DNA of 12,383 nucleotides. Origin: a bacterium. Its GTDB lineage: Bacteria; UBA6262; WVXT01. Shown piece by piece: positions 2,264-12,383 of the stretch. The position numbers and the translations under genes are program-made. Under the pieces are notes generated by a model. That model did not search any database and was not told the DNA's origin. It saw only the letters and a list, made by a program, of their open reading frames with translations. The stretch covers positions 1 through 12,383 of the forward strand of contig JBHIBS010000043.1 of NCBI GenBank assembly GCA_046759165.1, given 5' to 3'. Position 1 is the stretch's first letter. Every line of letters begins with the position of its first letter.

Positions 2264-2270
2264 CTTGTAA

Positions 2271-2448
2271 ATAAGGAACCTTGTGCGGAAGGGGTGACAG
2301 AGAGCGAAGCGAACGCAATTAGGGGCGCCGGTCGCGACGAATAAGGAGCGACGACCGAACGGAGTGAGGGAAAGGCGCGGGCGCGAGTTGGTGAGCGCCC
2401 GGGGTTGAGTTTTCCCGTATTGAGCACAGGCAGATTCACATAAGGAGG
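2271..2448 (+). repeat. ~178-bp intergenic direct repeat, copy 1 (contains core element A1, 2325-2400)
   Basis: Aligns to 3251-3427 with about 14 differences by manual count (~92% identity). Confidence 0.95.
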
Positions 2449-2540
2449 GTCGCTGTTCCGACGAATAAGGAGGAACGAGCCAGCGACGCCTGCGAGTCGG
2501 TGAGCAGGCAGGTCACCGACTGGAGCGAAGCGAAAGGAGG
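2449..2540 (+). repeat. Two-hairpin structured element, B-type copy, ending in the ccdA ribosome-binding site
   Basis: Stems GTCGCT/AGCGAC, GTTCC/GGAAC (loop GACGAATAAGGA) and GCCTGC/GCAGGC (loop GAGTCGGTGA), then GAGCGAAGCGA-AAGGAGG. Homologous to 10949-11032 and 12256-12342. Confidence 0.9.
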
Positions 2541-2544
2541 TAGG

Positions 2545-3243
2545 GTGCTTCAACAAGTTTCACTGGTTATGGCCTTTTTTGCCGGGCTTTTGACGTTTCT
2601 TTCTCCCTGCATCTTACCGCTGATACCTGCTTACGTCTCTTTTGTTACCGGGGTGTCCATTGATGATTTAGTGAGTGGCAGAGGAGAAAAAGGGAAGATT
2701 ACCGCGAGAATTCTTTTAGAAATAGTGCTATTCATTTTTGGCTTCTCTTTAGTTTTCGTCTTGCTGGGAGCTTCAGCTTCCTACTTTGGGAGATTTGTGC
2801 TCTCACATCTGAATATTTTAAGAATTGTCGGTGGAATTTTAGTTATCCTGTTTGGCTTGTATATTGCTGGGATATTTAACATAAGTTTTTTCGGGCATGA
2901 GAGAAAGATTCATTTAAAGATGAAACCCACAAATATTTTTGGTTCTTTTATTGTGGGAATGGTTTTTGCTCTGGGCTGGACTCCCTGCGCCGGCCCTATT
3001 TTGGCATCAATACTTACCTATGCCGGCACCCAAGAGACTGTCAGCAAGGGAATCTTGCTTTTAGGTTCCTATTCTCTTGGATTGGGTATTCCCTTTCTGG
3101 TTTCGGGTCTCGCTGTTAATCTCTTTCTAAGGGGATTCCGTAGAATAAAGAGATACTCAAGGCTGATATCAACAGTAACTGGAGGGTTACTTATTGGATT
3201 TGGAATTCTAATTTTGACCGGCAAATTTCAATTCGTAATGTAA
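2545..3243 (+). CDS. ccdA: Cytochrome c biogenesis / DsbD-family transmembrane electron transporter CcdA
   Basis: Hydrophobic, about 6 TM segments, with two Pro-Cys motifs (FLSPCILPLIP and WTPCAGPIL). GTG 2545 follows AAGGAGG at 2534-2540. Confidence 0.92.
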   Translation: MLQQVSLVMAFFAGLLTFLSPCILPLIPAYVSFVTGVSIDDLVSGRGEKGKITARILLEIVLFIFGFSLVFVLLGASASYFGRFVLSHLNILRIVGGILVILFGLYIAGIFNISFFGHERKIHLKMKPTNIFGSFIVGMVFALGWTPCAGPILASILTYAGTQETVSKGILLLGSYSLGLGIPFLVSGLAVNLFLRGFRRIKRYSRLISTVTGGLLIGFGILILTGKFQFVM

Positions 3244-3250
3244 TTAATAG

Positions 3251-3427
3251 ATAAGAAACCTTTGCGGAAGGGGTGACAGAGAGCGAAGCGAACGCAATCA
3301 GGGGCGCCGGTCGCGACGAGTAAGGAGCGACGACCGAACGGAGTGAGGGAAAGGTGCGGGCGCGAGACGGTGAGCGCCCCGGGTCGAAGTTTCCCCTATT
3401 GAGCACAGGCTGATTCACATAAGGGGG
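3251..3427 (+). repeat. ~177-bp intergenic direct repeat, copy 2 (contains core element A2, 3304-3379), ending in the trxA RBS
   Basis: Near-identical to 2271-2448; ends ...CACATAAGGGGG, 4 nt before the trxA ATG. Confidence 0.95.
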
Positions 3428-3431
3428 AAAA

Positions 3432-3755
3432 ATGGAAATAGTGGTGAATGATGAAAATTTTGAGGATGAAGTTCTGAAATCAGAAGTGCCTGTTTTTGTG
3501 GATTTCTGGGCTGAATGGTGCGCGCCCTGTTTAATGGTTGCCCCAGTTATAGAAGAGATTTCCCAGAAATACGCAGACCGTTTGAAAGTGGGGAGACTTA
3601 ACGTAGACGAAAATCCTCTCACCAGTGCAAAATATGGGATTCGGAGCATTCCCACTTTCATAATCTTCAAGGATGGAAAAGTGCTCGGTCAGACTGTGGG
3701 CGCAATGCCCAGGGAAGCCTTAGAAGCGAAAATTGGAGAAATTCTGAATGAGTGA
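3432..3755 (+). CDS. trxA: Thioredoxin
   Basis: 107 aa with VDFWAEWCAPC active site and cis-Pro loop IRSIPT. Confidence 0.95.
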   Translation: MEIVVNDENFEDEVLKSEVPVFVDFWAEWCAPCLMVAPVIEEISQKYADRLKVGRLNVDENPLTSAKYGIRSIPTFIIFKDGKVLGQTVGAMPREALEAKIGEILNE

Positions 3756-4692
3756 GTATGATGTTATTGTGATTGGCGGTGGACCGGCAGGTTTGACTGC
3801 AGGTCTCTATACAGCCCGCTCGAAAGTGAGAACTTTGCTTCTGGAAAAGGTTGCTCCCGGAGGCCAGGCAGCAGTTGCTACGACAATAGAGAACTATCCA
3901 GGATTTCCGGAAGGGATTGAGGGATTTGAGTTGATGCAGAGGACCAGGAAGCAAGCTGAGAAATATGGACTGGAGATTAAAAGTAAGGAAGTTGTAAAGG
4001 TTAAGGTCTCTTCAAAAGATGAGCAGTCCAAAGGGAAACTGGAGAAAGTAGTTAACACAGAGCAAGAGGAGTACAAGACTGTAGCTTTAATTGTGGCTAC
4101 AGGGACAAGGCCGAGGAAATTGGGAGTCCCGGGTGAAGAGAGATTGATTGGTCGAGGGGTATCCTATTGCGCCACATGTGACGGACCCCTGTTTAAGAAT
4201 CGGAAAGTTGTTGTAGTGGGTGGCGGAGATACTGCAGTAGAAGAGGCACTATTTCTATCTAGGTTTGCAGAGAAGACCACTTTAATTCATCGCCGAGACA
4301 AGCTGCGGGCGACTAAAATTATCCAGGAGAGAGCGATTTCCAATCCAAAATTGGAATTTCTCTGGAAGTCAGTAGTGACTGAAATTTTTGGAGAAACTGA
4401 AGTGGAAGGTGTTAAAGTAAGAAATCTGGAAACGGGAAAAGATTTAACATTAGAAGCAAAGGGGGTTTTTGTGTACATAGGTACCCTCCCTAACACCGGG
4501 TTCCTGAAGGGTATTGTAGAGATGGACGAGAAAGGATTTATTATTACAGACGGAAATATGGAAACTTCAGTTAAAGGAATTTATGCTTGCGGAGATGTAA
4601 GGAAAAAAATATTGAGGCAGATAGTGACTGCCTGTGGTGATGGCGCAACCGCGGGTTTTGCTGCTGAACAGTATGTTGGGAAGTGGAAATAG
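3748..4692 (+). CDS. trxB: Thioredoxin reductase (NADPH, FAD)
   Basis: GGGPAG FAD motif, IENYPGF, SYCATCDG redox disulfide, GGGDTAVEEA and HRR NADPH motifs; overlaps the trxA stop. Confidence 0.97.
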   Translation: MSEYDVIVIGGGPAGLTAGLYTARSKVRTLLLEKVAPGGQAAVATTIENYPGFPEGIEGFELMQRTRKQAEKYGLEIKSKEVVKVKVSSKDEQSKGKLEKVVNTEQEEYKTVALIVATGTRPRKLGVPGEERLIGRGVSYCATCDGPLFKNRKVVVVGGGDTAVEEALFLSRFAEKTTLIHRRDKLRATKIIQERAISNPKLEFLWKSVVTEIFGETEVEGVKVRNLETGKDLTLEAKGVFVYIGTLPNTGFLKGIVEMDEKGFIITDGNMETSVKGIYACGDVRKKILRQIVTACGDGATAGFAAEQYVGKWK

Positions 4693-4742
4693 AAAAAGGA
4701 AATGTAGAATGTAGCTGTAGAGCGAAACTCTGCTTCGATGTA

Positions 4743-4797
4743 GGTAGTGTAGGGGCTTGTCCCCGTAAGAATTACGCCCATAAAGGGCTACACTACC
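4743..4797. repeat. GTAG-type REP-like cloverleaf palindrome
   Basis: GGTAGTGTAG (4743-4752) and CTACACTACC (4788-4797) are perfect inverted repeats enclosing three hairpins: GGGG/CCCC, CGTAA-GAA-TTACG and GCCC-ATAAA-GGGC. Confidence 0.65.
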
Positions 4798-4834
4798 CAC
4801 TTTGCTGCTACAAGCTTCAGAAAAGAGAGGAGAT

Positions 4835-5383
4835 ATGAAAAAAGCATTGCAAAAAGGGCTGATAATTTTTGCCCTTTTGGTTATCTGTAGTTCAGGCTGT
4901 GAGGTCAAGACAGAGAGAGAGGAGATAGGGAAACTCGAAGAGGAGATAAAAGCCGAGAAGGAGTGGGGAAATGCCCCAGATTTCACTCTTTCCAAGCTTG
5001 ACGGAAATAGTTTAACTCTTTCGGACTTTAAAGGAAAAGTGATTATTCTCAATTTTTGGGCCACCTGGTGTCCTCCTTGCCGAATGGAAATTCCAGATTT
5101 TGTAGAGCTTTATGAGAAATATAAAGATGAAGGCTTACTTATCATTGGGGTCAATCTGGACGGAGGAGACAGCCGTTCAGTTAAACAATTTTTGGAAAAG
5201 TATAAAATTAATTACCCTATAGTCCTTGGCAATGTTAAGGTCACCGAAGATTACGGAGGAATTAGAGCAATCCCCACTACTTTTGTTATTGATAGAAACG
5301 GCAATATCAGGGAGAAGTACGTCGGTTACCGGCCCAGAGCCACCTTCGAAGACCAGGCTAAAAAATTATTGGAAATTCCCTGA
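4835..5383 (+). CDS. TlpA/ResA-family thiol-disulfide oxidoreductase, probable lipoprotein
   Basis: Basic plus hydrophobic signal peptide ending SSGC (lipobox-like), APDFTL, NFWATWCPPC and IPTTFVID. GAGGAG lies upstream of ATG 4835. Confidence 0.9.
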   Translation: MKKALQKGLIIFALLVICSSGCEVKTEREEIGKLEEEIKAEKEWGNAPDFTLSKLDGNSLTLSDFKGKVIILNFWATWCPPCRMEIPDFVELYEKYKDEGLLIIGVNLDGGDSRSVKQFLEKYKINYPIVLGNVKVTEDYGGIRAIPTTFVIDRNGNIREKYVGYRPRATFEDQAKKLLEIP

Positions 5384-5410
5384 CAAGCATTCAAACAAAA
5401 GCTGTATAAT
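5380..5410 (+). promoter_or_regulatory. Possible sigma70-type promoter upstream of the NrdG-like gene
   Basis: CTGACA (5380-5385) and a perfect TATAAT (5405-5410). The 19-nt spacer is longer than optimal. Confidence 0.35.
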
Positions 5411-5414
5411 TGTG

Positions 5415-6128
5415 ATGAAAATTTTGATAAAGGGAATGATTGAAACTTCGTTCCTCGATTGGGATGGAAAGATCGTTTCCACTCTATATACGCCGTATTG
5501 TAATTTCAGATGTCCCTACTGTCAAAACTCAGGGCTGGTCCTGAATCCTGACCAATATGAGACAATTCCCTTGGAAATAATTTCAAATTTTCTGATAAGC
5601 CATCGAAATTGGATTGATGGAATATGTCTTACCGGCGGAGAACCCTGTTTCTTTGAAGATTTACCAGAATTTCTGAAAAAAATTCGCAATTTAGGAATGG
5701 AGATAAAGCTTGACACTAATGGCACTTTCCCAGAAATGTTGAAGAGAGTGATAGATATGGGACTAGTCAATTATGTGGCTATGGACATTAAAGCACCATT
5801 AACTTTTGACGCCTACAAGAAGTCAGTAAGGATAAACAGTAAGAAATTATTTGATAAGGTTAGAGAAAGCGTTAACTTAATGACCCATTCTGGAGTCGAT
5901 TACGAGTTCAGGACCACAGTGGTTCCCGGTCTCCACAGCAAGGAGGACATCTTGGAAATCGCACGGGAAATAGAGGGAACAAAGAAGTATGCCTTGCAGA
6001 ATTTTTCCAACCAAGAAACAATGGACCCCGAGTTCCAAAAAATAGTCCCTTACAAGATTGAAGAACTGGAAGAGATTCGCAAGCTCAGCCTTCAGTACGT
6101 TCAATGTTGTGTCGTTCGGGGAAAGTAG
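5415..6128 (+). CDS. nrdG: Anaerobic ribonucleoside-triphosphate reductase activating protein-like radical SAM enzyme (NrdG type)
   Basis: SFLDWDGK...CNFRCPYCQN, TGGEP, LDTNG, VAMDIKAP and YEFRTTVVP. Likely start is ATG 5415; the longer ORF-track start overlaps the upstream gene. Confidence 0.8.
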   Translation: MKILIKGMIETSFLDWDGKIVSTLYTPYCNFRCPYCQNSGLVLNPDQYETIPLEIISNFLISHRNWIDGICLTGGEPCFFEDLPEFLKKIRNLGMEIKLDTNGTFPEMLKRVIDMGLVNYVAMDIKAPLTFDAYKKSVRINSKKLFDKVRESVNLMTHSGVDYEFRTTVVPGLHSKEDILEIAREIEGTKKYALQNFSNQETMDPEFQKIVPYKIEELEEIRKLSLQYVQCCVVRGK

Positions 6129-6135
6129 AAATCAA

Positions 6136-6615
6136 ATGAAAGGGAATAAGATCGTTTCAATAAATAGAAGTGATAAGAAGGGCACTGTTAAAAAGCCTGT
6201 AAGAGAAGCAATCCTCAGGAGAAATTGGGGATTGATGAGGGATGCTCATGGCGGTTTGTCACATCGTCAGGTGAGCCTTTTAGGAATAGAAAATATTAGA
6301 AAGTTCGTTACTCGATTAGCAAAGCTCGAGCGCTCTAAGAATGTGAAGTTCAAGATTGGCCCAGGAGATTTTGCAGAGAATATTACCACTGGGGGCTTTG
6401 ACCTTAATGGCTTGCGTATTGGAACAAAGTTGAGGTTGGGAGATCGGGCTGTAATGGAGATTACTCAGCGGGGCAAAGAGTGCCACACCAAATGTGAAAT
6501 AAGGAAATTAATAGGAAATTGCATTATGCCCAAAGAAGGTCTATTTGCAAAGGTAATCTGTGGAGGAAAAATAAGGGTGGGAGACCCCATAGAAATTGAG
6601 GGGGAAGGATTATGA
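6136..6615 (+). CDS. MOSC domain-containing protein (Moco sulfurase C-terminal-like)
   Basis: DAH...RQVSLL, GDFAENITT, GKECHTKC, CIMPKEG and GKIRVGD motifs; ATG 6136 lies just after the upstream stop. Confidence 0.88.
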   Translation: MKGNKIVSINRSDKKGTVKKPVREAILRRNWGLMRDAHGGLSHRQVSLLGIENIRKFVTRLAKLERSKNVKFKIGPGDFAENITTGGFDLNGLRIGTKLRLGDRAVMEITQRGKECHTKCEIRKLIGNCIMPKEGLFAKVICGGKIRVGDPIEIEGEGL

Positions 6616-7385
6616 ACACTTTACCGATTAAAGAGAAACTCAAGGGGGGAGGATTTGTCGTCGGCCCTTTTATGAAGTGCCGTGATCCAGCAATGGTTGA
6701 AATAGTAGGCCTTGCTGGATTCGATTTTGCCATTTTGGATATGGAGCACAGTGCACTCTCTATTGAGAGCATGGAAGATTTGATAAGAATGGCAGGGGTT
6801 AGAGGCATTGATTCAATAGTTAGGGTTCCCGAAATATCGGAATCTGCGATTTCGGCACCGCTGGATGCAGGAGCAAGCGGGGTTTTAGTTCCGCACGTCG
6901 ACACCAAAGAGCAGGCAGAAGAGGTGGTATTTCTATCGAAATTTTCTCCTTTAGGGGAAAGGGGAATGGATGTATTTGCTCGTGCCGCTGACTATTCTCA
7001 CCTCCCCAAGGAGATTTACCTTAAGGAGGCGAATAGGAGAACTCTTTTGATTGTCCAGATTGAGGGGAAGAAAGGAGTGGAAAACCTCGATGATATATTG
7101 CTGGTTAAGGGTCTGGATACCATATTTGTTGGACCTTATGACCTCTCTCAGTCGCTGGGAGTTCCTGGTGAGATAGGCCATCCGAAGGTTAGGGAAAAAA
7201 TTAAGGAGGTGGTGGGAAAGGTAAGAAAGGCGGGTCTCTCGCTTGGAATATATGTGGATGATGTTGAGACGGCAAAGAGATGGATTAATTTGGGTGTTCA
7301 GTTTATTGCCCTTCTTGTGGATGTCGTGATATTTTTCCAGGCCTGCCGTTCTCTCGTTGCTCCTCTGAGAAAATCTGAAAGATAA
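6612..7385 (+). CDS. HpcH/HpaI (class II pyruvate) aldolase family protein
   Basis: AGFDFAILDMEHS, VRV, LDAGASGVLVPHV, QIE and FVGPYDLSQSLG motifs. Confidence 0.92.
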   Translation: MNTLPIKEKLKGGGFVVGPFMKCRDPAMVEIVGLAGFDFAILDMEHSALSIESMEDLIRMAGVRGIDSIVRVPEISESAISAPLDAGASGVLVPHVDTKEQAEEVVFLSKFSPLGERGMDVFARAADYSHLPKEIYLKEANRRTLLIVQIEGKKGVENLDDILLVKGLDTIFVGPYDLSQSLGVPGEIGHPKVREKIKEVVGKVRKAGLSLGIYVDDVETAKRWINLGVQFIALLVDVVIFFQACRSLVAPLRKSER

Positions 7386-7428
7386 TATGTAAAAGGTAGT
7401 CTATTTATCGCTGAGGAAGATATGCTCA

Positions 7429-7576
7429 GGATTTGCTTCGCTCGCTGACAATTTTTTGCTCTTCGAGCACCGCCAAAAATCTCAGGAGTTTACCGAAAGG
7501 GCAAGTCGCTCAGTTTCGGCTAAACTCTTTTCTTCGATTTTTGGGTAAAAATTCTAATGCTCGCTACACCCAATCC
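7429..7576. repeat. Long nested imperfect palindrome (MITE/REP-like structured spacer)
   Basis: Concentric arms: GGATT/AATCC (7429-7433/7572-7576), AATTTTT/AAAAATT (7450-7456/7547-7553), CCAAAAATC/GATTTTTGG (7473-7481/7536-7544), GAGTTTA/TAAACTC (7486-7492/7521-7527), CCGAAA/TTTCGG (7493-7498/7514-7519). Confidence 0.7.
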
Positions 7577-7676
7577 CCTTGCATTATGGGAATATGTTGT
7601 CCTCGTTTTTTGGTCAAAATTCCAATAGTTCTTCATAAGTTATCTTTTAATAAGGTAATTGACAGAGGAATCAATT

Positions 7677-9203
7677 ATGGCTGAATTCCTGTTAGGAATA
7701 GACATAGGGACCACTTCCTGTAAGGTGGGTCTATACGGTTTAAAAGGCAATATGGTTGCCCAAGCTTCCAAAAGTTATCCCACTTACCAGCCGGCTCCCC
7801 ATGAAATAGAGCAGAATCCCGAGGACTGGTGGAAGGCAGTAGAGATAGCAATTGGACAGATCGGGCGGAGACCGAAGGTAAAAATGTCTTCGATTGTAGG
7901 TATAGGCTTGAGCGGTCAGACTCCGACTCAGGTCTTTGTGGATAGAAAGGGCAAAATTTTGAGACGCGCAATTATCTGGAGAGATACAAGGAGTGAGGAC
8001 GAGGCTCGATGGATCCGGAGGGTGATAGGAAAGAGGAGAATGGAGAAGTTTCTGGGGATGGACTTACCCATACAGCCTAATTGGCCTCCCGCTAGACTTT
8101 TGTGGCTGAAGAAACATGAGCCCCAGATTTTGAACAGGACGTTCAAGATTCTTCAGGCCAAGGATTTTATTGGATACAAACTTACAGGTTGTTTCTTCTC
8201 AGATAGGTGGTGTTCTAAGGGGATGGTCAATTTAAAGACTGGTAGAGTTTCCAGTGAATTTTTTGGAGTTCTGGGAATTTCAGAGGAGATAGTTCCTGAG
8301 ATCTATAAACCATATGAGGTAGTTGGGAGAGTAAGAAAAGAGATAGGAAATCGCATCGGGATTCCCAAGGGCATTCCTGTAGTTGCAGGATGGAGCGATG
8401 CTCTATGTGGAATGCTTGCCACGGGTTCGCTCTCTGTTTCGGGTAGGGCTTTCAACATCACCGGCACTTCGGAGATAGTGGGGCTCACAACTCTTTCTAT
8501 TCCAAAATTGACTTATGGTCTTATGTCAATTCCCTCAGCCATAACTAATACTATTTCTGTTTTATACGGGCCGACTCAATCTGGTGGCGATTCGCTGAAG
8601 TGGGCAGGGGAAACGCTTCTCGACCTGGATGAAAAAACTGGCACCCAGGGTCTCTCTCTTACGGGATTGGATTCACTCTTGAGCCAGGCAGAGTCCATAG
8701 TTCCTGGAAGCAAAGGTATGATTTTTCTCCCCTATCTTGAAGGGGAAAGGGCACCGATTTGGGATGCGAATGCTAAGGGACTTTTAATTGGCATAACAAG
8801 AACGCATCGAAGATCTCACTTAATTAGGTCTATTCTTGAGGGCGTGGCTTACAGCGTGAGGCATTTGCTGGAAATTGCTGAGAAATCCGTGGGAAGAAAA
8901 GTTGAGAAAATTAGAATAGCGGGTGGAGGAGCGAAGATCGATCTCTGGAATCAAATTAGAGCAGATGTCACCGGCAGGTGCATAGAGAAGTTGCAGGTGT
9001 TAGAGACTGGAACGTTGGGTGCAGCCATGCTGGCAAGCTCGGGCATTGGCGTATATAAGAGCTTAAATGAGGTTAGTAAACAGATGGTTCACGTAGCCAG
9101 TTTAGTGGAGCCAGTTAGAGAACACCGTAAACAATATGATAAATTGTTTGGAATTTATAAAAGACTCTATCCTCTCCTGAAGCCGGTTTTCCACGAACTT
9201 TAA
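7677..9203 (+). CDS. FGGY-family carbohydrate kinase (xylulokinase-like; substrate not determinable)
   Basis: LGIDIGTTSCK, EQNPEDWW, IIWRDTRS, FLPYLEGERAPIWD, GGGAK and GAAMLA. AGAGGA lies upstream of ATG 7677. Confidence 0.92.
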   Translation: MAEFLLGIDIGTTSCKVGLYGLKGNMVAQASKSYPTYQPAPHEIEQNPEDWWKAVEIAIGQIGRRPKVKMSSIVGIGLSGQTPTQVFVDRKGKILRRAIIWRDTRSEDEARWIRRVIGKRRMEKFLGMDLPIQPNWPPARLLWLKKHEPQILNRTFKILQAKDFIGYKLTGCFFSDRWCSKGMVNLKTGRVSSEFFGVLGISEEIVPEIYKPYEVVGRVRKEIGNRIGIPKGIPVVAGWSDALCGMLATGSLSVSGRAFNITGTSEIVGLTTLSIPKLTYGLMSIPSAITNTISVLYGPTQSGGDSLKWAGETLLDLDEKTGTQGLSLTGLDSLLSQAESIVPGSKGMIFLPYLEGERAPIWDANAKGLLIGITRTHRRSHLIRSILEGVAYSVRHLLEIAEKSVGRKVEKIRIAGGGAKIDLWNQIRADVTGRCIEKLQVLETGTLGAAMLASSGIGVYKSLNEVSKQMVHVASLVEPVREHRKQYDKLFGIYKRLYPLLKPVFHEL

Positions 9204-9212
9204 TGTACACGC

Positions 9213-9272
9213 GCGGGTTCGATGAATCGAACCCCTGAAATGATTGCAGGTGGGATTTGTCGGATCCGCTAC
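9213..9272. repeat. Degenerate REP-like hairpins
   Basis: Perfect hairpin GGGTTCGA-TGAA-TCGAACCC (9215-9234), plus a weaker palindrome ending in CTAC (9249-9272). Confidence 0.45.
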
Positions 9273-9288
9273 CGATAGGAGGCATTGA

Positions 9289-10446
9289 TTGGAGGTGAAA
9301 AGACTAAAACAGTTAGCAAGAAATAACCAGAAAGGTTTGGTCGATTTCTTGAGAGATATAGTGAGAATTCCCAGCCTCTCTGGTCGAGAGGCGAAGATTG
9401 CTCGTCGGGTAAAAGAAGAGATGGAAAGGTCTGGATTTGACGAAGTGTTCATTGACGGCATTGGAAATGTGGTAGGACGAATCGGTTCGGGGAGAGTCAG
9501 GATACTATACGATGCACATATGGATACTGTGGATATTGGTGATAGAAAAAGCTGGAAGCACGACCCTTTCGCAGCGGAATATAGAGGTGGGATCATTTAT
9601 GGGAGGGGAGCATGTGATGATAAAGCAGGGGTCGCCTCAGCTATATATGGTGGTAAACTAATTGTAACTCTTGGTCTAAGAGGAGATTATACACTGTACA
9701 TTGCTGCCACCGTGGAAGAGGAGTCAGCTGGGGGTAAAGGCATTGAATATCTGATAAGGGAAGATAGACTGAAACCACATTTTGTTCTTCTCGCAGAGCC
9801 AAGCAGTCTGAATATTATTCGCGGACACAAGGGAAGGGTTGGGCTGAAAATTTCTCTCAGAGGCAAGTCGGCACATGCCGGCACGCCCTGGAAAGGGATA
9901 AATGCAATCTACAGAATGGCGCCATTAATTCGGAAGGTAGAAAAATTGAACAGTAGACTCCCCTCTACTCCTCCTCTGGGGAAAGGAACCGTAACCGTTA
10001 CCAAGATTGACTGCGAGAAAGCTTCCTTAAATGCCATCCCTGACAATTGTACTATCTACGTAGATAGGAGAACGAATACTCGGGAGACTAAACAGAGGGT
10101 AAAACGCGAATTGAGAACTCTTATGGGAAAGGGTGGAAAATTAGAAATTTTGCAAAAGTTCTTTCCTGCCTGGGAATTACCGCGGGAACACCCTTTGGTT
10201 CTCTCTTGCGTAGAGACTTATAGGGCTCTTTTTAAGAGGAGCCCTGAAGTTCTCCTCTGGCCATTTTGCAGCAATGGAAGTTATACTATGGGCGAGAAAC
10301 ACATACCTACGATAGTTTTTGGGCCAGGGGAGGAGAGAGTTGCCCACTCAGCTGATGAACAAGTCAAGGTCGAACATCTTATCAAGGGAGCAATGTTTTA
10401 TGCGATGCTACCTGTAATGATATCGAAAAGATTTAGGAAGACCTGA
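9289..10446 (+). CDS. M20-family metallohydrolase (YgeY/ArgE/DapE-like)
   Basis: DAHMDTV, GRGACDDKAG, EEE, AEPS, GKSAHA and AHSADE metal-ligand motifs; AGGAGG at 9277-9282, 6 nt before TTG. Confidence 0.9.
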   Translation: MEVKRLKQLARNNQKGLVDFLRDIVRIPSLSGREAKIARRVKEEMERSGFDEVFIDGIGNVVGRIGSGRVRILYDAHMDTVDIGDRKSWKHDPFAAEYRGGIIYGRGACDDKAGVASAIYGGKLIVTLGLRGDYTLYIAATVEEESAGGKGIEYLIREDRLKPHFVLLAEPSSLNIIRGHKGRVGLKISLRGKSAHAGTPWKGINAIYRMAPLIRKVEKLNSRLPSTPPLGKGTVTVTKIDCEKASLNAIPDNCTIYVDRRTNTRETKQRVKRELRTLMGKGGKLEILQKFFPAWELPREHPLVLSCVETYRALFKRSPEVLLWPFCSNGSYTMGEKHIPTIVFGPGEERVAHSADEQVKVEHLIKGAMFYAMLPVMISKRFRKT

Positions 10447-10512
10447 AGGCTTGGCCCTTAGGGCTCGAGCCCGGAGAGCGTGGGCTATATTCCTGTTCAA
10501 ATAATTTTTTAC

Positions 10513-10542
10513 TTGACAAAAAAGTATTGATTTTGGTATCAT
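10513..10542 (+). promoter_or_regulatory. Sigma70-type promoter with extended -10
   Basis: Perfect TTGACA (10513-10518), 18-nt spacer, TGn-TATCAT (10537-10542), AT-rich upstream. Confidence 0.7.
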
Positions 10543-10799
10543 TAAAAATTACCTAACCAAGCATAAGCAATTCTCACTTCGTCTTACAACTCCCGGTAAT
10601 AATCTACCGCTTTTAAGTTTACCATCCTTAAGCCACTAATTAGTTTCTCTAACCAGAGTTTATTATGGAACCTAATCAACAACTCTCACGTTTATGTATA
10701 CTGGCAAGAATTCAAAGTCAACTGCAAAGCAATTCTATATTTTTATAACATTCAGGAGGTGGTGCCTGTAAAGTCATGGGGTAAAAGTGTTAAAATTTT

Positions 10800-10853
10800 G
10801 CATAGATTGAATCTGTGCCTACAACACAATTGTAGGTACGGCTTTAGCCGTGC
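10800..10853. repeat. Back-to-back pair of GTAG-type REP-like hairpins
   Basis: GCATAGATT-G-AATCTGTGC-CTAC (10800-10822) and GTAG-GTACGGCT-TT-AGCCGTGC (10832-10853); each is a palindrome with GTAG at its foot. Confidence 0.6.
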
Positions 10854-10863
10854 AGAAAACAAG

Positions 10864-11032
10864 AGGGGCGCCGGTCGCGACGAATAAGGAGCGACGACCG
10901 AGCGGAGCGAGGGAAAGCTGCGGGCGCGAGACGGTGAGCGGCCCGGAGCGCTGTTCCGACGAATAAGGAGGAACGCGTCACGGACACGTGCGAGTCGGTG
11001 AGCAGGCAGGCCGCCGACTGAAGCGAAAGGAG
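10864..11032 (+). repeat. Adjacent A-type (10868-10944) and B-type (10949-11032) copies of the two-hairpin element, ending in the amidohydrolase RBS
   Basis: Loop GACGAATAAGGA at 10879-10890 and 10958-10969, GAGACGGTGA at 10928-10937, GAGTCGGTGA at 10992-11001; ends GCGAAAGGAG. Confidence 0.92.
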
Positions 11033-11041
11033 ATGAAAAAA

Positions 11042-11785
11042 ATGAAGATAGTCGACATTCATTTGCATTTGGGACCATGCAAGGTGTTTGATTTAGATAC
11101 TTCGGAAGAGGCGTTGATGGGCACGATAGAAAAGAATAAAGTTGATGCTGGGCTTGTTCAACCTTATCCAGGCACACCGGATGTCAAGAAAACCCACAAT
11201 GATATAGCTAAACTTGTGAAGAAGTACCCTAAGAAGATTTTTGGACTTGTAAATCTCAATCCCCATCAGGAAGAAAAAGAATATAATGCAGAGGTTGATA
11301 GACTCATAAGAGATGAAGGTTTCGTTGGTATAAAACTGCACACTATTGGTCATGCGATAAGTCCTCTGGCTACCGATGCAAAGAAGGTCTTTGAAGCAGC
11401 GAAAAGGCATAAAGTTCCGTTAATGATTCATACTGGAGCGGGAATTCCATTTGCTCTGCCTTCACTTGTTATACCTATGGCACAGGCTTATCCGGATCTC
11501 CCAATAATCCTTTATCATTCTGGTATGGCACATATATATTCAACTGAAGCTTACATTGCTGCAAAACTTTGCAAGAATATCTATTTAGAGGGTTCTTGGA
11601 TTTCTATTAATGAGAAAATCTGGTTTGTAAGCGACCTCGGGTCCGAGAGAATACTTTTGGGAACCGACTTGCCAGAGAATACGGCAGTGGAAATCTTCCA
11701 GTATAAATCTATGAACCTTAGCGATAACGACCTAGCAAATGTTTTGGGTGAGAATGCTATAAGGCTCTTCAACCTTAAGATATAA
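11042..11785 (+). CDS. Amidohydrolase-2 family TIM-barrel metallohydrolase
   Basis: IVDIHLH (HxH), GIKLH, IHTG, HSG and GTDLP. ATG 11042 is 9 nt after AAGGAG; ATG 11033 is an alternative. Confidence 0.88.
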   Translation: MKIVDIHLHLGPCKVFDLDTSEEALMGTIEKNKVDAGLVQPYPGTPDVKKTHNDIAKLVKKYPKKIFGLVNLNPHQEEKEYNAEVDRLIRDEGFVGIKLHTIGHAISPLATDAKKVFEAAKRHKVPLMIHTGAGIPFALPSLVIPMAQAYPDLPIILYHSGMAHIYSTEAYIAAKLCKNIYLEGSWISINEKIWFVSDLGSERILLGTDLPENTAVEIFQYKSMNLSDNDLANVLGENAIRLFNLKI

Positions 11786-11929
11786 TATAGAGGAGCTCTG
11801 CCTCTTAAAAGGCACGCTTTTCACAGTTCTCTTGCCGAGCAAGGGACTTATACCAGGAGGCAAGGAAAGGGGGGAATAGAAGGGAAGCAAAAGAAACATT
11901 TAATTTTTTGTCGAAAGGGGGGATGAGCG

Positions 11930-12226
11930 ATGATAGGAATGGGTTTTTCGGCTTTCTTGACGCTTTTGATTATTGCCATTGTAGTCTCGGTAATTTTATC
12001 TCTGGTGAAAGTTCGAGTTACTGGTGGGTTTATCGTTATGTTAATTGTCGGTTGGTTTGGTGCATGGTTGGGTTCTCCTGTTTTTGGATACTGGTGGGAG
12101 GCTTTGAGCGTCGAGGGCGTTTATATCGTACCAGCTGTTCTGGGTTCGTTAGTAGCCATCAGTTTGTGTGCCTCTAAAGGAAAATTTATTGAAGGAGTTC
12201 TGGCCAAATTAGCTAAGAAAGAGTAG
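11930..12226 (+). CDS. Small membrane protein, GlsB/YeaQ/YmgE (transglycosylase-associated)-like
   Basis: Three hydrophobic segments with IVGWFGAWLG and IVPAVLGS; purine-rich RBS 7 nt upstream. Confidence 0.7.
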   Translation: MIGMGFSAFLTLLIIAIVVSVILSLVKVRVTGGFIVMLIVGWFGAWLGSPVFGYWWEALSVEGVYIVPAVLGSLVAISLCASKGKFIEGVLAKLAKKE

Positions 12227-12255
12227 AAAATTTAGATTTTATTACAGAAAGGAGG

Positions 12256-12383
12256 GTCGCCGTCGCGACGAGTAAGGAGCGACAAGTCTGGCGACGGGTT
12301 CGAGATGGTGAGAACCCCGGCCGGATTGAGCGAAGCGAAAGGGTCGCCGTCGCGACGAGTAAGGAGCGACAAGTCTGGCGACG
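12256..12383 (+). repeat. Tandem copies (87-bp period) of the two-hairpin element; second copy truncated by the window end
   Basis: 12253-12296 is identical to 12340-12383. Unit: GTCGCC[GTCGC-GACGAGTAAGGA-GCGAC]aagtct-GGCGAC, then GGGTTC-GAGATGGTGA-GAACCC, then GAGCGAAGCGA. Confidence 0.93.

Follow-up and report, generated by a model that had tools for sequence, protein, structure and literature searches.

Small repeated elements such as REP, BOX, and MIRU sequences and MITEs (miniature inverted-repeat transposable elements) are frequent, and each known family is, to our knowledge, confined to a narrow group of organisms. In most such families, the conserved part is the end that is recognized by a known transposase. 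Here, we analyze a stretch of 12,383 nt (the window; contig C43 of the 1.885-Mb assembly G000, which comprises 165 contigs with 42% G+C) that carries seven copies of a repeat with a different conserved part, an internal two-hairpin core with a fixed loop and freely covarying stems. The core recurs in distant, mostly uncultured phyla, and no linked enzyme is visible. We consider it probable that the copies are non-autonomous structured mobile repeats, which are recognized as a folded single strand by a trans-acting enzyme. As far as Rfam 15 and text searches of the literature show, the repeat family is previously undescribed. It is unusual in that the core is common to distant phyla, is embedded in different outer backbones, and in this lineage occupies ribosome-binding sites with the Shine-Dalgarno (SD) sequence renewed.

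The element behaves like REP/BIME, MIRU, or MITE elements, yet it lacks the defining features of each of them. Like REP, BIME, and REPIN sequences, the units are small, GC-rich, structured, and extragenic, occur in tens of copies, often within operons and in mosaic clusters, and turn over fast. In contrast to these sequences, each unit opens with a G-run and then the enclosing helix P1, and none of the four subtypes that we distinguish (A, B, C, and D, of which C is absent from the window) carries a GTAG/GTGG tag at the 5′ end. Instead of forming inverted doublets, neighboring copies are always direct, with a period of 87 nt in type D and 92 nt in type B, or they follow each other as A then B. 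Moreover, no cognate RAYT gene flanks them, and the RAYT-like genes of G000 stand beside other repeats. Two abutting hairpins, a fixed 12-nt loop, and a core common to several phyla further distinguish the element from REP sequences, which are lineage-specific.

With MIRU sequences, the element shares tandem intercistronic units of 40–100 bp in sense direction, with variable copy number and a position at translation signals. The arrays of G000 display this behavior in their sense orientation (22 of 23 arrays), their periods of 87 and 92 nt, and an SD sequence plus start codon within 25–55 nt in 13–15 arrays, a likeness in behavior only, with no sequence relation. MIRU sequences are described as containing short open reading frames (ORFs) for translational coupling and are not known to have a conserved two-hairpin fold or to occur outside mycobacteria, whereas no ORF is implied here and the fold covaries.

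MITEs are likewise non-autonomous and multi-copy and differ in presence between strains, and in Nitrospiraceae the core is located inside an element with terminal inverted repeats of ~25 nt. Such ends are missing from the type B and D units of the window, which have direct AGGAGG-type borders. AGGAGG at 2443 and 2535 and TGATTCA on both sides of the outer element in the sister genome G008 resemble target duplications; since these border motifs belong to the elements at other loci, however, a target duplication is indistinguishable from an element end. While the interior of a MITE is normally free to drift, the interior is conserved here, and no matching transposase was found.

Architecture and covariation of the two-hairpin core

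The core is a non-coding unit of ~75–90 nt. It starts with the G-run, continues with P1, which encloses P2, and after a short linker or a mini-hairpin ends with P3, which directly abuts the P1/P2 helices. The P2 loop (loop 1) comprises 12 nt of the form GACGRRUAAGGA, and the P3 loop (loop 2) has the form GAG..GUGA. In the window, loop 1 (GACGARTAAGGA) occurs exactly at 2336, 2460, 3315, 10879, 10958, 12267, and 12354, always on the plus strand. These seven matches compare with 0.15 expected, and none of 200 shuffles gives as high a count. One more site, at 4525, differs from loop 1 by a single letter; it is part of the thioredoxin-reductase gene and lacks the stems. Loop 2 (GAGWYGGTGA) is found exactly at 2385, 2494, 3364, 10928, 10992, and 12302 on the same strand (2.3 expected); the seventh copy is truncated by the contig end, and loop 2 is thus seen six times.

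An unrecognized family of such elements had been proposed from the letters of the window (the original prediction), and its loop positions are exact throughout. The stems that it listed are present and complementary, including the GGTGC variant of P1 in the copy at 3315, and the two helices abut as described. The extra hairpin that it noticed in the type A copies proves to be a real mini-hairpin with a covarying 2-bp stem (GC..GC, AC..GT, GT..AC), which, by our reading of the copy sequences, is retained in 10 of the 11 type A copies of G000. All seven window copies lie in spacers (lgt/ccdA, ccdA/trx, M20 peptidase/amidohydrolase, and after a 98-aa ORF), in line with the proposed intergenic placement on a single strand. 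The partial decay that it suggested at 10868–11007 is also borne out: the pair at 10861–11013 scores 34 and 49 bits with our covariance model R1, below intact copies of types A (45–50 bits) and B (~77 bits), respectively.

Model R1 contains 107 distinct short-form copies. They stem from 119 copies retained by a filter that required no fewer than four of the five P2 pairs and five of the six P3 pairs; 12 long type A forms were excluded. On alignment A1, the three-helix structure has 91% of its cells paired, compared to 64% in column shuffles (reached by 0 of 500) and at most 49% when the partners are slid against each other. Fifteen of the 17 pairs change on both sides, all three stems covary, and the covariation score amounts to 0.63 vs 0.17. 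P2 and P3 are favored by the copy filter, while P1 was unfiltered; all six P1 pairs covary, and the 79% pairing of this helix is an underestimate, because the delta-type copies are shifted by one column. Without a supplied structure, RNAalifold recovers P2 and P3 together with an invariant C-G pair inside loop 1, and does not recover P1. The selection on single-stranded structure plus loop sequence postulated by the original prediction is therefore supported by strong covariation and by a loop 1 that stays fixed.

Helix lengths are constant across phyla, with 5 bp in P2 and 6 bp in P3. According to our reading of the sequences, a C-GA...GA-G frame surrounds all hairpins, the type A mini-hairpin included, and would allow tandem G·A pairs. 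Loop 1 is exact in all 15 copies that the model finds in the Nitrospiraceae genome G041, where the loop 2 pattern is matched by only three; the center of loop 2 is variable there, and GAG..GTGA is kept. Folding of single sequences yields P2 and P3 in most window copies, and the minimum-energy fold of the type A core at 2318–2406 contains P1, P2, and P3. The z-scores of the minimum free energy are modest, ranging from −0.4 to −4.8, and single-sequence folding alone is thus insufficient to reveal the structure.

Stem mismatches in G000 are balanced between G·T and A·C (4 vs 4) and show no strand preference, so that neither RNA nor DNA is favored as the folding strand. In P2 and P3 of alignment A1, 16 G·T compare with 9 A·C mismatches, a count that is biased because the filter treated G·T as paired.

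Rfam 15 yields no match at E ≤ 1 in the window and, at six loci of other phyla, none that falls on a core at E ≤ 0.1. Further, we found no account of the motif in the literature on structured repeats and RNAs, in which supplementary lists of unnamed motifs could hold it. To this extent, the family is indeed unrecognized. The TwoAYGGAY RNA motif, as presented in the available part of its description (10.64898/2026.09.22.753630), is similar in having two hairpins, purine-rich loops that contain GG, and an association with repeats. In contrast, no Rfam model matches at E ≤ 1, and the motif has other loop sequences and an arrangement unlike the nested P1/P2.

Spread across phyla and turnover between relatives

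The seven copies of the window are a small sample of those in G000. R1 identifies 39 copies in 33 arrays at E ≤ 0.01, and a profile search of the contigs identifies 44 copies at E < 0.001. As about nine arrays touch a contig end, the true copy number is higher. The repeat probably breaks the assembly, and it is a likely cause of the contig breaks in these metagenome-assembled genomes (MAGs).

In a phylum sample of 12 species genomes, searched with R1 at E ≤ 0.001, all eight other genomes of the same family match with 3–36 copies each. Neither of the two sister-family genomes matches, and the remaining genome of the phylum gives one weak match. An exact-pattern scan over one genome per prokaryotic species returned at least 116 stretches; among those listed, 105 hold a copy with both stems, while 11 are chance matches. 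By their record titles, the matches listed belong in the majority to Nitrospirota and further to Planctomycetia, Omnitrophota, Elusimicrobia, Endomicrobia, Gaiellales, and Ratteibacteria, to delta-proteobacterial, Syntrophaceae, and Thermodesulfobacteriota MAGs, and to MAGs labeled Clostridia. In five genomes of other phyla, R1 finds 15, 38, 4, 8, and 7 copies; the searches with this model covered ~130 of 199,900 species genomes. All five pattern matches in viral contigs lack the stems and are chance matches, and the plasmid collection gave no match.

The further copies that a covariance model was expected to uncover are thus present in G000, in every other genome sampled from its family, and in other phyla, no match to a known Rfam or REP family emerged, and covariation is evident. 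Beyond the scope of the original prediction were the SD sequences within or abutting the copies, the nesting of type A copies in a second repeat, and the occurrence of the core outside a single genome.

This second, outer repeat begins with GATTCAC.TAGATAA.. and ends with ..TTTCCCCTATTGAGCACAGGCTGATTCACATAAGGAGG, 5–8 nt before a start codon. Type A and C cores are located in its apical part, and it also occurs without a core, in G008 and elsewhere in G000. In the window, its two copies appear as a direct repeat of 173 nt with 91% identity (2276–2448 vs 3255–3427).

Comparison with relatives demonstrates turnover at three spacers of the window. The gene order lgt-ccdA-trx-trxB is kept in all eight family genomes in which ccdA was found. 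The lgt/ccdA spacer comprises 282 nt in G000 vs 14–27 nt in all seven sister genomes. Between ccdA and trx, G000 has 189 nt, and five others (G003, G004, G005, G006, and G001) have 17–19 nt; the 114-nt spacer of G008 contains the outer repeat only, without the core, and the 71-nt spacer of G007 a degenerate variant. Hence, none of the seven sister genomes has a core at this site. The M20 peptidase/amidohydrolase spacer, with an A+B pair in G000, contains no canonical core in any of five sister genomes, four of which carry other small repeats before the amidohydrolase gene. At this position in G004 (L145), the outer stem, linker, and tail of type D are present, with both hairpins swapped for CCCGA-stem hairpins that have GAATAA/AGATAA-type loops. 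A loose end with the G004-type variant occurs at window position 12281 in two runs. It seems that repeat families can exchange hairpin modules.

Closer relatives differ as well. Contigs of related strains from other studies join position 2266 to 2535 and skip the elements (shorter side, 69 and 37 letters), or connect 3242 with 3413 through 26 different letters (54 on the shorter side), while still others contain extra tandem B copies. In four genomes of another genus, a 90-nt type D unit is 98–100% identical, with neighboring genes at 77–87% on the DNA level. The turnover between strains and sister genomes, the near-identity across genera, and the tandem and nested copies support the first of two candidates that had been offered for the family, a mobile element. 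The second one, cis-regulation of particular genes, is not supported, as the neighbors are unrelated, the orthologous spacers lack the copies, and the orientation varies by lineage.

A separate arrangement is found at the end of contig C29 and the start of C85 in G000, where a type A core has the 5′ three quarters of a tRNA-Gly gene on its left and the full gene on its right. This suggests a tandem duplication of the core and a partial tRNA gene.

Placement at ribosome-binding sites

Units of types B and D have AAGGAGG as their left border and end with ..GAAGCGAAGCGAAAGGAGG, followed by a start codon 4–8 nt later. In the type B unit upstream of ccdA, the tail ends with GCGAAAGGAGG, which is the SD sequence of this gene (GTG start at 2545, fixed by seven orthologs), and AGGAGG flanks the unit on both sides (2443–2448 and 2535–2540). 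With an AGGAGG-type 5′ border and the tail GCGAAAGGAGG, the downstream gene thus keeps an SD sequence after insertion. Because each unit brings an SD sequence along, dozens of ribosome-binding sites of housekeeping genes are occupied without being destroyed. The family would thereby offer a natural example of 5′ leaders being rewritten throughout a genome by mobile DNA.

Among the 33 arrays of G000, the downstream gene is encoded on the same strand in 22 and on the opposite strand in one, and has been cut off by the end of the contig in 10. An SD sequence with the start codon of an ORF of at least 60 aa follows the core after 25–55 nt in 13–15 arrays and after 86–146 nt, behind another repeat, in four; three arrays precede tRNA-Gly genes. 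Counting all genomes, the neighboring genes (lgt, ccdA, trx, amidohydrolase, tRNA-Gly, PhoU, XseB, ComEC, enolase) indicate that the placement is not gene-specific. G000 is 88% coding and has 90 strand switches among 1394 adjacent gene pairs; with so few switches, sense orientation is inseparable from replication orientation in this genome.

Other lineages display other orientations. In the Nitrospiraceae genome G041, the core forms the center of a ~230-nt element with the terminal inverted repeats of ~25 nt mentioned above. GC skew places 13 of the 14 copies of its 2.87-Mb contig on the C-rich strand, and the core is antisense, directly after a stop codon, in seven of eight loci with a Pfam-backed neighbor. 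By crude longest-ORF calls, 8 of the 20 copies in the delta-type genome G042 are sense and 12 are antisense; 15 of these 20 are on the C-rich strand, which is uninformative because the skew follows the local gene direction. G045 was left out of the orientation count, since crude ORF calls gave no usable neighbors at several loci. The window copies lie on the G-rich strand, and in G000, as in G042, skew is confounded with gene direction. Even so, sense copies near start codons are frequent in other lineages. At ten loci of other phyla, the downstream sense ORF is a real gene, with functions that are unrelated to one another; as these loci were picked for having such an ORF, they give no rate.

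In four Nitrospirota species, a sense copy is located directly before enolase, at the same place and with compensatory stem changes. At two of these four loci (L095 and L098), an extra insertion of ~60–75 nt is nested in the 3′ arm of the ~230-nt element.

In the mobile-repeat model that we favor, an enzyme acting in trans would recognize the folded single strand (DNA, possibly RNA) as its substrate and copy or move the unit. That the orientation in this family is strictly sense could then be due to an SD-bearing border that serves as target. Alternatively, with 88% of the genome coding, insertions of any other kind may be lost, which would leave the sense bias. In either case, the orientation would not result from a service of the RNA to the host.

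Several observations weigh against mobile repeats of this kind. No mobilizing enzyme was found among the candidates tested (Y1, the IS110 family, reverse transcriptase), and no clean pair of empty and filled sites with an unambiguous end or target duplication was obtained. The copy before enolase looks like long retention. Further, an invariant 12-nt loop and fixed helix lengths across phyla resemble a functional RNA more than they do the known ends of transposons. Part of the invariance of the loops in the cross-phylum set stems from the scan pattern, which demanded them.

These properties lead to the most serious alternative, in which the core works as RNA. A folded module in 5′ untranslated or intercistronic RNA would be cleaved, cleave itself, or bind a common factor, such as the ribosome or some protein that recognizes hairpins with the GA frame, and thereby insulate, stabilize, or boost downstream translation, with the spread of the repeat being secondary. 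Besides the invariant loop 1 and the constant P2 and P3, the C-GA...GA-G frame common to all three hairpins is consistent with such a role, as are the sense arrays of G000 that end shortly before an SD sequence and start codon, the genes downstream of the ten picked loci, and the retained copy before enolase. In the type B unit upstream of ccdA, moreover, a tail segment is complementary to loop 2, and folding gives an alternative hairpin between loop 2 and the tail, i.e., two mutually exclusive folds. In contrast, the antisense copies of G041 (7 of 8, just after stop codons) and G042 (~12 of 20) are hard to reconcile with a leader RNA, and the copies are dispensable, being missing in sister genomes and strains. 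Three arrays precede tRNA genes, where an SD sequence is useless, and neither the balanced stem mismatches nor the orientation in G000, which is inseparable from that of replication, speaks for a transcript. We therefore regard a function as RNA as possible but improbable.

The loops themselves offer a link to the ribosome. UAAGGAG in loop 1 matches the complement of the 16S 3′ end (..GGATCACCTCCTTTCT), and GGUGA is present in many copies of loop 2; together, the two spell a full SD sequence. The idea of such a split SD sequence is weakened by the 12 of 15 Nitrospiraceae copies in which GGUGA is missing. Since GGUGA is not conserved in Nitrospiraceae and a sister copy has both loops replaced, the match to the SD sequence is a lead only.

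A more far-reaching proposal, which we consider speculative and rather doubtful, is that the core represents a self-propagating, structure-dependent homing module of an undescribed kind. An unrecognized single-strand recombination system could use it as substrate or guide, or it could be a new small processing or self-cleaving RNA; it would install itself in ribosome-binding sites in at least six phyla and regenerate the SD sequence, with loop 1 (..UAAGGAG) being read against the universally conserved SD/anti-SD sequence. Should the core turn out to act as RNA or as a guide-like module, a new class would be established.

Candidate enzymes and features of the window

Descent from Y1 transposition systems appears unlikely. 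The units would be miniature derivatives of IS200/IS605 or REP/RAYT elements, with each hairpin bound by one Y1 HUH subunit and with the short motif at the 5′ and 3′ sides representing a cleavage and target sequence rather than a duplication. Two hairpins with a shared frame and an AGGAGG-type motif at the left flank and the right end fit this arrangement. The palindrome-associated transposable elements (PATEs) of the IS200/IS605 group are similar in their hairpins near each end, in a short motif that adjoins the left end and recurs at the right one, and possibly in a strand-specific placement. Y1_Tnp genes are found in seven of nine family genomes, several per genome, and in three of five others. 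However, no Y1_Tnp match was obtained in G006, G007, G041, and G043 despite 24, 8, 15, and 4 copies, a point that is weakened by MAG incompleteness. The parental ends expected of a PATE were not seen: no model match lies next to the four IS200-like tnpA genes of the survey, whose loci contain no core except for one unrelated copy 1.4 kb off, with a normal gene in between. As for a constant strand, the 13 of 14 G041 copies on one replication strand agree with Y1 activity, whereas G000 and G041 show opposite placements of the copies relative to skew and genes (C-rich in G041, G-rich in the window). A GTAG tag and inverted doublets are lacking, and the two RAYT-like genes of G000 (C4:49828-50160 and C40:2673-3005) are flanked by different repeats of their own.

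These RAYT-linked repeats have ~15 genome-wide matches for the first gene and five for the inverted pair around the second. On contig C76, a type C core has one copy of the first RAYT-linked repeat in place of its 5′ part.

Neighboring HUH/RAYT, IS110, or reverse transcriptase genes, which had been suggested as partners, do not track the element. Reverse transcriptase (RVT_1) is found in none of the nine family genomes and in one of five others. When 1774 ORFs from the 116 loci listed were clustered, no family beside the core was shared across phyla. An absent transposase is weak evidence, because MAGs often lack assembled insertion sequences. The core is a well-defined substrate for seeking a mobilizing or RNA-binding activity.

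The attC sites are similar in that folded single strands are recognized, with structure taking precedence over stem sequence, and in their single orientation relative to neighboring genes. They form one array beside an integrase and possess R and L boxes, whereas the arrays of G000 are distributed among housekeeping genes on 25 or more contigs and have no R/L boxes; an integrase was not searched for.

A relation of the core to the guide RNA (bridge or seek RNA) of IS110/IS1111 elements, either as a solo guide-like module or as a preferred landing site, seems very unlikely. It is suggested by an IS1111-type element on contig C2 of G000 (L203 780-2085), which has 16-nt inverted ends and a split transposase frame and is inserted in a ribosome-binding site, between ..CACATAAGGAGGTAGA and GGAGGGTAATC+ATG, with a left flank that resembles the 3′ end of the outer repeat. 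Moreover, loop 1 is identical to the top-strand SD sequence, and IS110/IS1111 elements are described, in the available part of the source, to insert in one orientation without duplication, with mini-elements that can be moved in trans (PMC11187229). In contrast to a guide RNA located in the non-coding end of an element with a DEDD transposase, no core was found as an element part at 15 IS110-family loci from eight genomes, searched with the filters of R1 switched off; the sole match lies 1.3 kb away and is missing from an identical second copy. The transposase is present in only four of nine family genomes and three of five others, and the units lack the subterminal inverted repeats of the IS1111-type element. 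A loop-1-like string in the non-coding end of IS1111 was rejected as being at chance level for the edits allowed (expected about as often as seen).

Some riboswitches, such as c-di-GMP-I, occur in tens of copies per genome. Nonetheless, a riboswitch or protein-binding leader of a particular regulon is the least credible explanation and already largely refuted, as its two adjacent hairpins with conserved unpaired bases, sense and upstream of genes in this family, stand against unrelated neighbors with no stable gene association other than enolase in four Nitrospirota species, orthologous spacers without a core (7/7, 7/7, and 5/5), presence or absence between strains, tandem and nested copies, antisense copies in other lineages, and the lack of an Rfam match.

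Table 1. Copies of the two-hairpin core and of the outer repeat in the window, with R1 scores.
Feature	Position	Strand	Description	R1 score (bits)
Outer hairpin-like repeat, copy 1	2267..2442	+	Type A core in apical part; 3′ end GATTCACATA, then AGGAGG	
Two-hairpin core, type A	2318..2406	+	P1 GCGCC/GGCGC; P2 GTCGC/GCGAC; extra mini-hairpin; P3 GGGCGC/GCGCCC	49.8
Type B unit	2442..2540	+	Core 2442-2515; P1 GTCGCT/AGCGAC; P2 GTTCC/GGAAC; P3 GCCTGC/GCAGGC	77
Outer repeat, copy 2	3246..3427	+	Encloses type A core; ends 5 nt before trx start codon (3432); SD sequence supplied, AAGGGGG	
Two-hairpin core, type A	3297..3385	+	One G·T pair in P1	45.2
Type A core, decayed	10861..10949	+	Mismatches in P1 and P3	34.1
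Type B unit, decayed	10940..11034	+	Tail ends GCGAAAGGAG, 7 nt before amidohydrolase start codon (11042)	49.2
Type D unit	12249..12342	+	P1 GTCGCC/GGCGAC; P2 GTCGC/GCGAC; P3 GGGTTC/GAACCC; tail ..GGATTGAGCGAAGCGAAAGG	83.1
Second type D unit, tandem (period 87)	12343..12383	+	Cut by contig end; model positions 8-47	40.1

Other repeats are present in the window besides those listed in Table 1. Directly upstream of the A+B pair, a distinct small repeat at 10796-10860 consists of the hairpin CCTACAA..TTGTAGG followed by CGGCTTTAGCCG. Pieces of 26–65 nt of this repeat, with 77–100% identity, occur many times in five sister-genus genomes. The spacer after trxB contains hairpin repeats with GTAG at 4706-4800, which are separate from the two-hairpin core; within them, at 4743-4796, contigs from other runs pile up and break, as seen from a depth spike and loose ends. 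Finally, the spacer before the FGGY kinase gene contains a multi-copy stretch (7474-7570) with a summed contig depth of ~10 times that of its neighbors. Some contigs omit 7492-7528 of this stretch, and almost all aligned contigs have a different base at position 7545.

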